A stretch of DNA of 64,000 bases from Escherichia coli (lineage in GTDB: Bacteria > Pseudomonadota > Gammaproteobacteria > Enterobacterales > Enterobacteriaceae). Location: assembly GCF_003018255.1 (NCBI RefSeq), contig NZ_CP027441.1. The stretch is one strand, 5' to 3'. How positions within the stretch are numbered: the first letter of the stretch is position 1; every line of letters begins with the position of its first letter. The notes below the pieces were generated by a model. The model had not been told where the DNA came from. It did not search any database and was given only the letters and a program-made list of their open reading frames with translations. Of the stretch, positions 19,478 to 23,500 are shown piece by piece. A program made the translations under genes and the position numbers.

Positions 19478-22400
19478 ATGAAGTCCAGATATCGTACCTG
19501 GCTTGCTGTCCCGCCTGAGGAGACAGAAGCCGTAAAAAATGCAGTCCCCCCGTTAAATGGCCGCAAAGCTGTCGCATGGGATCCAGAAAAAAAACTCTGG
19601 TATGCCCGGGCGGGTACCGAACTTTCACTGCTGGAGCGCTGGTTACCCCGGCCGCAGGAACTGTCGATGGATGCCGGCGATCCGGTCACCGAATTTGCTC
19701 AGGTCCTGGAAAACGCCGGGCTGGTTATTCAGGGATTGCCACAGATGGATGGCGCCATACACAGAGTCGCCACCCGGGATGACAAAAAAGGGGCCAAAAG
19801 TGGCGCATACAAGGCCTATCTTGATGGGCGCCCCGCCGGCTGGTACCGCGACTACCGGAGCGCCGATGACAGTCCCACAAACTGGGTATTTTCCGGCGGA
19901 GAACAACACGATCCTCTGGCCAGACTGCATCTGCGGGCATTCGCTCAGCAACAGCGCGATGATAACGCACGTAAACTGCAGCAACAGTACAACAAACAGG
20001 CCCGGTATGCCCGCTCCTATATTAACCAGTTACCACAGGCAACAGAGCATGAATACCTGACCCGAAAAGGGATCCTTGCCGCACCGGGCGTCCGTCTGAA
20101 TAACAAGAATGAACTCGTCATCCCTTTCAGTAACAGCCGGGGAGAAATACGTTCATACCAGCGTATTCCTGCCACCGGCGGGAAGGATGCCCGCATTCTG
20201 AAAGACTCAGAGAAAACCGGTAACTGGTTCACCTTCGGAACCCCGGAAAATGGCCGTCCCCTGTTATTTGCGGAAGGTTACGCAACTGCAGCCTCCCTGC
20301 ACGAAGCCACCGGCCTTCCGGTTCTGATGACAGTTGATGCCGGCAATATGATTGACGTGGCAGAAAATGCCCGCCAAATCTGGACTGACAGCCCCTTTGT
20401 CTTCTGTGCCGACAACGACCATCAACGGAAAATTAATAAAGGTGTTTCAAGTGCAAAAAAAGCTGCCGCAAGCACGCATGGCGAAGTCATTATTCCGGCC
20501 TTTACGGAGGCGGAAAAAGCACAGGGACTGACCGATTTCAATGACCTGGACGCCAGCCGGGGACGAGACGCCTTTCAGCGAGCCATGAACGCACAGTTAG
20601 AATATATCGGTATCCCCACGCCCAACAGTGACACTACTGACCGCCGTGAAGCTATCGTGATCGGCAACCTGATATTCACACCGGTAAAAGATGAGAAGCC
20701 ACAAATGTCCCCTGAAAACAGACAGAGCACAGCCCCTGAACCGGCAGTGTCGGAACAGAATCATCCTTATGACATCCCTGCAGAAGAGACAGACAATCAG
20801 GCATATGAAGATGACTATGCAGCATATGCATCCCTGCAGTCGGTAACTGCCGGGACAACCTCCCCGAATGAACCGCAGGTGAATGCTGTTTCTGCCATTG
20901 ACAGCAACGCAAAGAATACCTCTGCCGCCACCGCTGACGACCGGAATGTATTAGCACAAGAACCCAATGCTGACGCCACGGTTACAGTTACGACCACGGC
21001 TCACGACACCGGCACAGCAGAAACAGATTCACCTTCTGAACCTGCAGAGATTCAGCCAGTGCAGCAGGCCAGTCCTGAACCATCGGCTAAAGATAAACCA
21101 CTGGAGAACGTAGTGTCTGCTACTGATAACGACGCAGAGAACACCTCTTCCGCCACCACTGCCCTCCGGAGTAACGACACACCGGAAACATCCGTCTCCG
21201 ACGCAACCGGGACACAGCACACCGCCACAACGCAACCTGAAGAACAACAGCAGGTCTCCATGGGCAGCGCTGACGACTGGAGCGCATTTGCGGAAGACCT
21301 CAATGCTGATGCTCCGGGGAATGCCACTGCTCACAGCACCGACAACGCGGAGACAAAGACACTTTCTGAACCTGCCGGGATGCAGCCTGTTCAACAGGCA
21401 ACCCCTGAACCAACGGAAGAAAATAAACCTCAGGAAGAGGGCGTTATGTCTGCCACTGATACAGGTGAAGAGAGTGCCGCTGCCGCTATCGATGACGACC
21501 TGGACACAGTTGCGGAAGACCTCAATGCTGATGTTACTGTGATGACCACAGCTCACCACACCGATACAGCAGAAACAGCCTCACCTTCTGAACCTGCAGA
21601 AATTCAGCCCGTACAGCAGGCAACCCCTGAACCAACGGCAGAAGATAAACCGAAGGAAGAGCGTCCAGTGTCTGCCACTGAGACCAGCACAGCGAATGAA
21701 ACAGCCCGCCCTGAAACAGCATCGCTTTTCAGCCGCCTGCGCCGTTTTCTGACCGGTGGAAAATCACGTACCGCCGAACCTCCCGTTATTCAGGAGAACA
21801 CGCTTACGGAGGCCGAAACTGCGACAGAGGCCGCAGCACCACCGTCACCACCTGAAACCAGCCCGGAAGACACATCGTCAGCAGAACCGGACACGATTAT
21901 CTTTGCGCCCCGCCGGCCCAACAGTCCGCAGCGGCACAACCTGGACGAGATTATTAAAAATCTTGAGCACGAAGAGTTACCCGACAATACTGCGCTCTAC
22001 CGCGTCGACGGCGAACCGGCATTCCTGGATAAACTCAACCGTCTGGAAATGGTGGATGGTGCCAGTGCTGATGACAAAAAGGTCCTGGCTGCCCTTGCTG
22101 TGGCCACCAACTTCTATGGCGGCGTTATCGAGCTGACCGGCAGTGATGCCTTTAAGCAAAAAGCCATGCAGCTGATTGTCGAATACGACATCAAGGTTCG
22201 CATGAAACTCCCGGCCCAGCGGGCAGCACTGGAAAAACTCCGCAAGGAAAAAGAGATGGCGCATGATGCCATTGTCACCCACAGACCCACGCCGGAACTC
22301 AACCGCCTGTCACCGGAAGAGACAACAATGGCCCAACCGGCTCCCCCTGTGTCACCGAAGGCAGAGGCTGAACAAACAGCAGGCAGTACGGCTGAAACAC

Positions 22401-23500
22401 CGCATCCGGAAGCGCCGGTCACGGCAAAAGCTGAAGCCCCCCGGGCCGACAGACCGGAACAACCCGCCGCCTCGTCGTCTGCGCCAGAAAAAGCCCCTGT
22501 CAGTGCACAGCCGCAGCAACCCGACACACCGGAGGAAGAGCCGCCCGGCAAGCTCAGACCCGGTGAAAGTGTGACTGCCGTCCTGACAAACTACGGAGAA
22601 AAAGAGTATGCGCCCGGAAAAGGGCACTGCTTTTTTGTGGAGCTCACCAACCGCAGTGGCAAACGGGAATACTGGGGAAACGGCCTGGAAGAACTGGTCA
22701 AAAACCATCAGAAGGGTGACCCCGTCACACTGACACTGCAGGCGAGAGAAACATTCCGGCTGTCCGGTGAAACGCGGGATCGTATCCGTAATATCTGGGC
22801 CATAACCCCGGTCAGTAACGGCATTACCGTTAATAATGACCAACCTCATGCGGGTCAGCATACCCTGGAGTTTCCGATGGCAACATTCAGCCAGGTGATG
22901 TTACAGATGCAACAACACTGGCCACAGATAATGCAGGAAGTTCGCTCCCCCAAAAATCCTCCCAATAATCTGTACATTGGTGAAGACAGGCAACCTACAT
23001 CAGCACCTCAGGATCAATCAATGCGACTCCCCCTCGCAGGTAAAGCCCCCGATGAACTGATACCAGCCATCGCCTCTGCCGATAAGGACAATCGTCAGTT
23101 GAATCTTCTGCTGGTCCACAGCGCAGATGATCATCTGCAGGGCGTGGTCCGCCTGAACGGCACCCTTTACCCGGCACTGGCCACCCCGTCAGCTGACAAC
23201 CGTCAGCTGGTCATCAATGCCCTGACGGATAACGGTCTGCAGTTTGCCGGTTACGGTGAAGCTGTTAACCATGATGAGAATACTCATCAACGTCCGTCCC
23301 CACAAATAATGCAGTTTCACCTGAAGCAACAGGACTCCCCGTTGTTTGCCGCCATCCACAAACCGGAAGAGCAACCGGACAAGCTTTTCCGCTCTCTGGG
23401 TTTTGAGCAGACCTGGAAAGAGTGGTCTGACAGCCAAAAGGCGGAGGACAGGCAGGAAAAAACTCTGCAACAGGCACAATCCCACAGCCCCGGCCTGTGA
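19478..23500 (+). CDS. sog: plasmid DNA primase Sog
   Basis: 1340 aa; N-terminal primase region with LLFAEGYATAASL toprim-like motif; long acidic Pro/Glu/Thr-rich repetitive linker; located between traK and traL. Confidence 0.8.
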   Translation: MKSRYRTWLAVPPEETEAVKNAVPPLNGRKAVAWDPEKKLWYARAGTELSLLERWLPRPQELSMDAGDPVTEFAQVLENAGLVIQGLPQMDGAIHRVATRDDKKGAKSGAYKAYLDGRPAGWYRDYRSADDSPTNWVFSGGEQHDPLARLHLRAFAQQQRDDNARKLQQQYNKQARYARSYINQLPQATEHEYLTRKGILAAPGVRLNNKNELVIPFSNSRGEIRSYQRIPATGGKDARILKDSEKTGNWFTFGTPENGRPLLFAEGYATAASLHEATGLPVLMTVDAGNMIDVAENARQIWTDSPFVFCADNDHQRKINKGVSSAKKAAASTHGEVIIPAFTEAEKAQGLTDFNDLDASRGRDAFQRAMNAQLEYIGIPTPNSDTTDRREAIVIGNLIFTPVKDEKPQMSPENRQSTAPEPAVSEQNHPYDIPAEETDNQAYEDDYAAYASLQSVTAGTTSPNEPQVNAVSAIDSNAKNTSAATADDRNVLAQEPNADATVTVTTTAHDTGTAETDSPSEPAEIQPVQQASPEPSAKDKPLENVVSATDNDAENTSSATTALRSNDTPETSVSDATGTQHTATTQPEEQQQVSMGSADDWSAFAEDLNADAPGNATAHSTDNAETKTLSEPAGMQPVQQATPEPTEENKPQEEGVMSATDTGEESAAAAIDDDLDTVAEDLNADVTVMTTAHHTDTAETASPSEPAEIQPVQQATPEPTAEDKPKEERPVSATETSTANETARPETASLFSRLRRFLTGGKSRTAEPPVIQENTLTEAETATEAAAPPSPPETSPEDTSSAEPDTIIFAPRRPNSPQRHNLDEIIKNLEHEELPDNTALYRVDGEPAFLDKLNRLEMVDGASADDKKVLAALAVATNFYGGVIELTGSDAFKQKAMQLIVEYDIKVRMKLPAQRAALEKLRKEKEMAHDAIVTHRPTPELNRLSPEETTMAQPAPPVSPKAEAEQTAGSTAETPHPEAPVTAKAEAPRADRPEQPAASSSAPEKAPVSAQPQQPDTPEEEPPGKLRPGESVTAVLTNYGEKEYAPGKGHCFFVELTNRSGKREYWGNGLEELVKNHQKGDPVTLTLQARETFRLSGETRDRIRNIWAITPVSNGITVNNDQPHAGQHTLEFPMATFSQVMLQMQQHWPQIMQEVRSPKNPPNNLYIGEDRQPTSAPQDQSMRLPLAGKAPDELIPAIASADKDNRQLNLLLVHSADDHLQGVVRLNGTLYPALATPSADNRQLVINALTDNGLQFAGYGEAVNHDENTHQRPSPQIMQFHLKQQDSPLFAAIHKPEEQPDKLFRSLGFEQTWKEWSDSQKAEDRQEKTLQQAQSHSPGL
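20950..21700 (+). repeat. imperfect tandem coding repeats in the sog linker (three copies of a 220-330 bp unit)
   Basis: Repeated blocks containing TCACCTTCTGAACCTGCAGA(G/A)ATTCAGCC...CAGCAGGC...CCTGAACCA and GCGGAAGACCTCAATGCTGATG at about 21033, 21365 and 21593. Confidence 0.7.

Follow-up and report, generated by a model that had tools for sequence, protein, structure and literature searches.

Introduction

Why should a conjugative primase carry several imperfect copies of a long acidic segment in the middle of its chain, and do these copies come and go among related plasmids? The question is raised by the sog gene (19478..23500, 4,023 nt) in a 64,000-nt stretch of Escherichia coli DNA (contig NZ_CP027441.1; the whole stretch is called the window below, and all features are on its plus strand unless stated otherwise), an open reading frame (ORF) for a conjugative DNA primase of 1340 residues equivalent to the SogL protein of plasmid R64. 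An earlier note, made from the letters of the window alone, had proposed that the linker between the primase domain and the C-terminal domain holds three expandable tandem repeats, that their number could vary by slipped recombination, and that this number may account for the length of the protein relative to R64 Sog. In this article, I will argue that the repeats form an old, in-frame array whose copy number does differ among plasmids by whole units, that the array is probably a flexible, length-tolerant tether within a disordered linker, and that the difference in length from R64 has another origin.

A three-unit array in the Sog linker

The array consists of three head-to-tail units of 225, 333 and 222 nt that together cover 20888-21667. 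Unit 1 (20888..21112; residues 471-545) is a short form of 75 residues in which the position of a tryptophan (Trp) motif is degenerate (ADDRNVLAQEPNAD), unit 2 (21113..21445; residues 546-656) is a long form of 111 residues whose additional insert of ~36 residues holds the intact Trp motif DDWSAFAEDL (nt 21272-21301), and unit 3 (21446..21667; residues 657-730) is again a short form, of 74 residues, with a degenerate Trp-motif position (DDDLDTVAEDLNAD); it is followed by a stub of the head of a fourth unit (VSATETS, 21668..21688), which a repeat-family search registered as a fourth copy. The same search placed the unit heads at 20887, 21112, 21445 and 21667, with the spacing of 225, 333 and 222 nt given above, and recovered longer core families too, while self-blastn between the units gave identities of 77.0%, 78.1% and 70.9% over ~200 nt (E 3e-42 to 9e-24). 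Tandem Repeats Finder reported only 1.9 copies of a 222-nt period (21271-21681), which are the last two copies, because the insert of unit 2 breaks the period. The three imperfect copies described in the earlier note are borne out by these results and by the shuffling control given next, as is the repeated peptide SPSEPAEIQPVQQA(S/T)PEP within acidic Pro/Glu/Thr-rich segments; the span of 20950-21700 that it reported needs correction at its left end, the true start lying about 60 nt further left, at 20888.

The explanation named beforehand as the one that could undo the claim was low-complexity composition without any repeat structure. When the codons of the linker were shuffled, the best off-diagonal score was 20.9±2.4 bits (maximum 29.2, n=60) compared to the 161 bits observed, and so the repeat structure is genuine and more than composition, with at least two head-to-tail copies standing above it. 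Self-blastp shows no repeats because high-scoring segment pairs contained in the self-hit are culled, and comparing fragments against the whole protein, with shuffled controls, is the valid test. All unit periods are multiples of 3, and the array, its units 71-78% identical to one another, is old and in frame. Nor is it collapsed in the assembly, the gene being 100% identical in three finished plasmid records. In the searchable literature, no description of repeats in Sog was found.

Variation by whole units

Units were counted with a hidden Markov model (HMM) of the unit in the 120 closest protein clusters, and the lengths of these proteins fall into discrete classes: about 75 clusters have three units (1335-1355 residues), one of them standing for 2,310 sequences, about 40 have two (1261-1267 residues; all from draft assemblies), and 5 have four (1405, 1458 and 1463 residues). 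The variation in copy number among related plasmids that had been proposed is therefore seen, by the unit HMM and by alignment, as alleles that differ by whole units. Among finished plasmids, three units are the norm in hundreds of IncB/O/K/Z- and pO113-type replicons (Inc, incompatibility group), and within a set of about 443 nearly all have three, 5 have four and none has two; the short-long-short order of the window is found again in finished plasmids typed as IncK2/Z and IncI-gamma/K1 (L002, L010, L011, L012). The junction of the four-unit array occurs at 100% identity, in a Sog of 1463 residues, in five finished IncK2/Z plasmids (NZ_OQ534116-119 and NZ_CP080167.1). The term "expandable" holds insofar as copy number does vary, but overstates the present dynamics, since the units are 22-29% diverged and three of them are almost fixed in finished plasmids, and the array does not show the high mutation rate of a contingency-type locus.

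Three distinct one-unit deletions are visible in the alignment and were confirmed on DNA, all of them clean hybrids, with the type B breakpoint mapped ungapped and types A and C mapped by three-way alignments. Type A (P0017 / L005) has lost 222 nt through a crossover in the 22-nt stretch CAGGCAACCCCTGAACCAACGG, which lies at 21395..21416 and again at 21617-21638; type B (P0005 / L006) has also lost 222 nt, through the 24-nt stretch TTGCGGAAGACCTCAATGCTGATG (21288..21311, repeated at 21510-21533), and, apart from the exact loss of these 222 nt, differs from the window gene by 1 mismatch in 3,801 nt; and type C (P0028 / L007) has lost 225 nt through the 8-nt stretch CCGCCACC (20925..20932, repeated at 21150-21157). 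The stretches used in types B and A are the longest and second-longest in-register identities between units 2 and 3, and that used in type C is the longest between the heads of units 1 and 2, which is the pattern that slipped misalignment or short-homology recombination should leave; the slipped recombination invoked in the earlier note, and unequal recombination alike, fit these in-register junctions at sequence common to the units. A fourth deletion type was seen once, in P0110, where about 330 nt are missing, the cores of units 1 and 2 are fused and the Trp motif is lost. Types A, B and C have each been seen on several allele backgrounds, and the identity of the type B junction in genes that otherwise differ by 67-68 nt implies either recurrence or spread by recombination.

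Gain of a unit followed another route. In the four-unit allele, units 1-2 match the L010-type allele at 99.5% and 97.5%, and units 3-4 correspond at 95-96% to units 2-3 of the L011/L002-type allele; because its halves match different alleles, the four-unit allele is the product of an unequal crossover between two diverged alleles, and duplication in situ was rejected as its origin on the same grounds. Every indel in the set is a multiple of three (222, 222, 225, 330 and 360 nt, plus a 6-nt slip). The last of these belongs to the window allele, which has a 6-nt tandem slip, GTTACAGTTACG (GTTACA GTTACG, encoding TVTV), at 20981-20992 where pO113-type alleles have TV, and hence a sog of 4023 instead of 4017 nt.

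The two-unit alleles are considered real but rare. They are present on dozens of contigs of up to 268 kb from independent pipelines, and for the type B protein alone two assembly pipelines gave at least 24 contigs. Logan assemblies use k=31, and the stretches shared at the junctions (8-24 nt) are shorter than this; 8 nt cannot mislead any assembler. As a separate observation, almost every pairing of upstream with downstream polymorphism blocks is represented among the sog alleles P0001-P0120 (M/VS/VY at the SogS start, for instance, combined with three variants close to the LPD7 domain), which indicates either that alleles of sog on co-resident I-complex plasmids recombine frequently or that some draft assemblies are chimeric.

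Disorder, short motifs and selection

The array lies in linker 1 (20705..21895; residues 410-806), which is acidic and rich in Ala, Thr, Glu, Asp, Ser and Pro, with a net charge of -44 over residues 470-745 and a mean hydropathy of 0.396, which puts it on the disordered side of the Uversky boundary (0.464). In an AlphaFold2 model of the SogS-equivalent product, built with a 38-sequence alignment, residues 410-805 have a predicted local distance difference test (pLDDT) score of 31-47 and no secondary structure except at two spots, a helical turn at the Trp motif (residues 602-605) and a helix, LFSRLRRFLT (residues 750-759). With low hydropathy, high net charge and no confident structure combined, these ~400 residues are predicted to be intrinsically disordered. 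The second spot is a short, basic amphipathic helix just past the array (21725..21754; helix 341-350 of the model) with a pLDDT of about 60, the best-predicted element of linker 1; as LFSRLRRFLT(GGKSR) it is kept in all B/O/K/Z alleles aligned, and the Sog of IncI1 plasmids has a basic segment, FLDKARGLFTRKK, at the same relative position.

Two short motifs stand out from this otherwise variable region. The Trp motif of unit 2, the site of the only helical turn that AlphaFold2 places inside the array, has counterparts in IncI1 Sog (DKDWREFEAEL, residue 522; a single copy) and in the 46%-identical homolog P0123 (DDWNAFAEDL), and a tyrosine (Tyr)-rich acidic motif 5' of the array, AYEDDYAAYASLQ (20801..20839; residues 442-454), has counterparts in the same two proteins (EEYEDYSAYQELM at residue 632 of IncI1 Sog, EYDDFRAYEEMM in P0123). 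The order is Tyr then Trp in the window and P0123 and Trp then Tyr in IncI1, and around these shared motifs the linkers of the three are otherwise unalignable. A regular-expression search for both motifs among distant homologs had hits in the closest subfamily alone, and conservation across the family was rejected, the distant homologs being without them.

For the window compared with IncK2/Z alleles, the ratio of nonsynonymous to synonymous substitution rates (dN/dS) is 0.45-0.5 across the array and lower in the primase module (0.14-0.15) and LPD7 (0.13-0.24); between the paralogous units themselves it is 0.36-0.54. The array is under relaxed but non-zero purifying selection.

The sog gene and its domain layout

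The tra gene neighbourhood identifies the ORF as the sog primase of an I-complex (Dot/Icm-like) transfer region: in NZ_CP027451.1 and relatives, traJ and an IcmT/TraK-like gene are annotated on the 5' side and traL with DotI/IcmL and DotH/IcmK homologs on the 3' side, that is, the traL-traM-traN side. The product has a primase module that includes EGYATA and a Toprim domain, its gene sits in the tra operon of mating-pair formation type I (MPF_I), and it is homologous over its full length to R64-type SogL, with 48% identity to IncI SogL in alignment and megablast matches at the 5' and 3' parts. Its host replicon is a pO113-family plasmid, combining IncFIB with an I-complex MPF_I transfer region; NZ_CP027451.1, which is of this kind, is one of the three finished E. 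coli plasmids with the identical gene, the counterpart in pO113 (NC_007365.1) is 99.3% identical, and the sog of IncK2/Z plasmids is about 91% identical.

The N-terminal primase module (19493..20569) is composed of DUF5710 (residues 6-57; Pfam E 1.2e-8, above its cutoff) and Toprim_3 (residues 264-364; E 2.3e-5, and, at 25.2 bits, slightly under the gathering cutoff of 27.2), with the EGYATA motif at residues 266-271 (nt 20273-20290). Linker 1 leads to LPD7 (PF18821; 21992..22243, residues 839-922; E 1.4e-11, 44.7 bits against a cutoff of 27), for which a literature search found nothing, and a second linker (22268..22537; residues 931-1020), Pro/Ala/Glu-rich, non-repetitive and predicted to be disordered, leads to one or more beta-rich C-terminal domains (22565..23482; residues 1030-1335). 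The Pfam layout thus agrees with the earlier note in placing the repeats between the primase module and the downstream domains. Linker 2 also varies in length, about 42 residues being missing in the close allele P0022 (1296 residues), and this variation is accompanied by no repeat structure. In the model, LPD7 exceeds a pLDDT of 90 and the C-terminal region has 83-95 (83-96 for both together). A Foldseek search of the C-terminal region against the PDB returned RPA70 (DNA-binding domain, DBD), SSB (a protein that binds single-stranded DNA) and POT1 at the top, with a best E of 1.8e-3 and none at or below 1e-3, which suggests, as a hint, that the C-terminal part of Sog and SogS may bind single-stranded DNA (ssDNA) through oligonucleotide/oligosaccharide-binding (OB)-like folds. 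A coat of Sog proteins on the transferred strand, a speculation voiced in the literature (PMC6112013), is in line with these weak matches.

R64 SogL has 1,255 residues and its shorter companion SogS, made by in-frame re-initiation, has 844 (PMC6112013), and from these sizes the start of R64 SogS is Met412. Met410 of the window (ATG, 20705..20707) aligns with that internal initiation codon; the codon is ATG in the window, IncK2/Z and IncI alleles and GTG in several pO113-type alleles (L005, L007, L008), and it is preceded by a purine-rich stretch with a weak Shine-Dalgarno-like GAGAAG. Since ATG and GTG are both start codons, this fits a conserved internal start, and by analogy with R64 Met410 may be used in this plasmid as well. 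The array begins about 60 residues into the SogS-equivalent product and, if Met410 is used as in R64, would be part of the N-terminal tail of SogS.

One further ORF spans the array, of 176 residues on the minus strand (21029-21559), antisense to the repeats; nothing supports its status as a gene, and a repetitive, stop-poor sense frame probably accounts for it.

Comparison with IncI1 and other known systems

The protein of the window is indeed longer than R64 SogL (1340 versus 1,255 residues), as had been stated, but the proposal that repeat copy number explains the gap fails. The IncI1/Igamma proteins used for comparison (L003, 1255 residues; L004, 1254 residues) have no detectable internal DNA repeat and no match to the unit HMM; with filters off, a relic, TATIEPAVRDEPTPQQPVQSTSPS, appears at an i-Evalue of 0.014. 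Measured between conserved anchors, the 85-residue excess is instead distributed over three places: linker 1 has 397 residues in the window and 334 in IncI1 (+63), linker 2 has 111 and 87 (+24), and the N-terminus up to the SogS start has 410 and 412 (-2), while the LPD7 segment (102 residues) and the C-terminal domain (320 residues after the EEPPGKL anchor) are of equal length in both. Linker 1 of IncI1 is non-repetitive and similarly acidic (net -55), and is alignable to the window only at the Trp and Tyr motifs. The "sogS" of pOU7519 was set aside as a reference, being only a truncated remnant.

In other respects the window protein is like SogL/SogS of R64 and ColIb-P9, sharing the position of sog in an I-type (Dot/Icm-like) tra operon, the order of DUF5710/Toprim primase with EGYATA, acidic linker, LPD7, second linker and C-terminal domain, and the aligned internal start codon. 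For ColIb-P9 and R64, export of Sog has been reported, with hundreds of copies reaching the recipient (PMC8406263). The two groups differ in gene order, with IncI1/Igamma plasmids having nuc (an EDTA-resistant nuclease of the phospholipase D family) between traK and sog, whereas in the window (about 19130-19478), IncK2/Z and pO113 the traK/icmT-like gene is directly followed by sog without nuc. The Sog proteins of IncB/O/K/Z plasmids (typed IncK2/Z and IncI-gamma/K1) and of pO113 share the short-long-short array with the window and differ from it only at the level of alleles, some IncK2/Z plasmids having four units or a 12-residue micro-duplication.

In-frame length polymorphism of the variable-number tandem repeat (VNTR) kind arises in disordered linkers by slipped misalignment or unequal crossover. 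The sog array resembles this in its head-to-tail copies, its in-frame events, its junctions at the longest shared identities and its whole-unit alleles; it differs in that its units are long (222-333 nt), old (22-29% diverged), rarely varying and not hypermutable.

More distant relatives have done something similar with different material. An exhaustive search with the SogS-equivalent part retrieved 237 representatives at E <= 1e-3, a small family, and among the 52 long proteins in it many contain strong internal repeats, whose periods range from about 17 to 121 residues, the shuffled controls being clean. In all seven of the distant members checked (P0124, P0126, P0168, P0269, P0270, P0155 and P0178) the repeats occupy the linker that joins the N-terminal module to LPD7, with periods of about 30-100 residues and, in most, an Ala/Pro/Glu/Thr-rich composition, and some of the copies are 85-95% identical to each other; the P0124 repeat looks helical rather than low-complexity. 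These DUF5710-Toprim-LPD7 proteins, as well as Pri of pCTX-M3 (IncM), for which a second, shorter product has been proposed (PMC6112013), resemble the window protein in overall architecture, and many carry tandem repeats in the same linker, unlike it, though, in sequence and period. Since the repeats are unrelated across the family, tandem expansion in this linker has arisen repeatedly and independently.

Discussion

What, then, does the array do? I consider it likely that the three units, set in the disordered acidic linker 1, serve as a flexible, length-tolerant tether that changes by misalignment of its units. Neighbouring units would misalign at short identical stretches, through replication slippage or short-homology unequal crossover, and crossover would also take place between diverged alleles on different plasmids. 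Within SogL, the array sets the N-terminal primase module apart from LPD7 and the C-terminal domain; the linker would serve as a flexible spacer or tether of negative charge, its exact length being tolerated within roughly 320-520 residues, and the repeat structure itself may be a by-product of how such linkers grow. Tolerance of both length and sequence is argued from the IncI1 linker, which is acidic at 334 residues and cannot be aligned, and from the distant homologs with their unrelated repeats. Several points weigh against this reading. The two-unit alleles are known from draft and Logan assemblies only, and none of the junctions A, B and C was found in 443 PLSDB plasmids and 336 RefSeq complete E. 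coli genomes carrying the linker. The near-fixation of three units, together with a dN/dS below 1, suggests that length or sequence is not fully neutral, and the retention of the Trp motif in all variants but P0110 points to some sequence-specific function beyond that of a plain spacer. The Trp-motif segment of the long unit is the most likely functional element.

The same observations can be taken further, to units that are functional modules in which the acidic Trp motif (DDWxxFxEDL) docks a partner, for instance the coupling complex of the type IVB system, a chaperone, host SSB or the replisome, and in which copy number tunes valency. I regard this as unlikely, although it has real points in its favor: the motif is kept in IncI1 and P0123 inside linkers that cannot otherwise be aligned, it coincides with the only helical turn predicted in the array, it survives deletion types A, B and C and is present in two intact copies in the four-unit alleles of 1458-1463 residues, and the dN/dS is below 1. 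Multivalency, however, is not maintained, since only one of the three units of the window has an intact motif and those of the others have decayed, and both the P0110 allele and the more distant homologs do without it.

Acidic tails act as shields of ssDNA-binding surfaces in SSB and T7 gp2.5, and an analogous proposal is that the acidic linker of Sog mimics ssDNA and shields the C-terminal OB-like domains until the transferred strand is met, the number of repeats setting the strength of the shield. The conservation of charge without conservation of sequence (net -44 for the array, -55 for the IncI1 linker), the consistent if weak OB-fold matches to RPA70, SSB and POT1, and the published speculation on strand coating (PMC6112013) all go in this direction, but every fold match has an E above 1e-3, and some distant homologs have repeat linkers that are close to neutral (P0165 net +3, P0168 net -9), leaving the proposal quite improbable. 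The docking array and the ssDNA shield are both less supported than the tether. A narrower and bolder version of docking, in which the Trp-motif unit would be the module by which Sog is recognised, either by type IVB machinery of the Dot/Icm-like kind or by a replication factor of the host, and the number of units would tune export of the primase or SogS, is a long shot.

That there is no true repeat, only composition, or that the copy-number differences are assembly artefacts, is so improbable that it was rejected. The region is compositionally biased, self-blastp sees no repeat in it and all two-unit alleles come from draft assemblies rather than finished records, but the codon shuffle (21±2.4 versus 161 bits) and the culling of contained segment pairs dispose of the first two points, three finished plasmids have a gene identical to that of the window and five carry a four-unit allele, identities of 8-24 nt are too short to join k=31 de Bruijn paths, and the same type B protein was assembled on at least 24 contigs by two pipelines. 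Least probable of all, and likewise rejected, is an action of the repeat at the level of DNA or RNA, for instance through iterons that bind a protein, an internal element with a regulatory role or the antisense ORF at 21029-21559: this minus-strand ORF of 176 residues does span the array, but such an ORF is expected from a stop-poor repetitive sense frame, periods and indels are all multiples of 3 in the sog frame with a dN/dS below 1, an Rfam scan of the repeat region found no family matches, and in distant homologs the DNA repeats found at this position of the protein are unrelated.

Conclusion

The array is an ordinary in-frame length polymorphism in the disordered linker of a known gene, and it leaves our understanding of conjugation unchanged. 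At a practical level, the heterogeneity in sog length that it generates could confuse plasmid typing or annotation, and it is advisable to compare alleles unit by unit. Should the docking of a partner by the Trp motif turn out to be true after all, the independent repeat expansions across the Sog-like family would reflect selection on valency or reach and not neutral drift. Only a few proteins are natural substrates of a conjugative type IV secretion system of the Dot/Icm-like kind, and Sog is among them; its long linker, previously uncharacterised, now has a description that includes predicted disorder, old in-frame repeats, length variation by whole units and two short motifs in common with IncI1.

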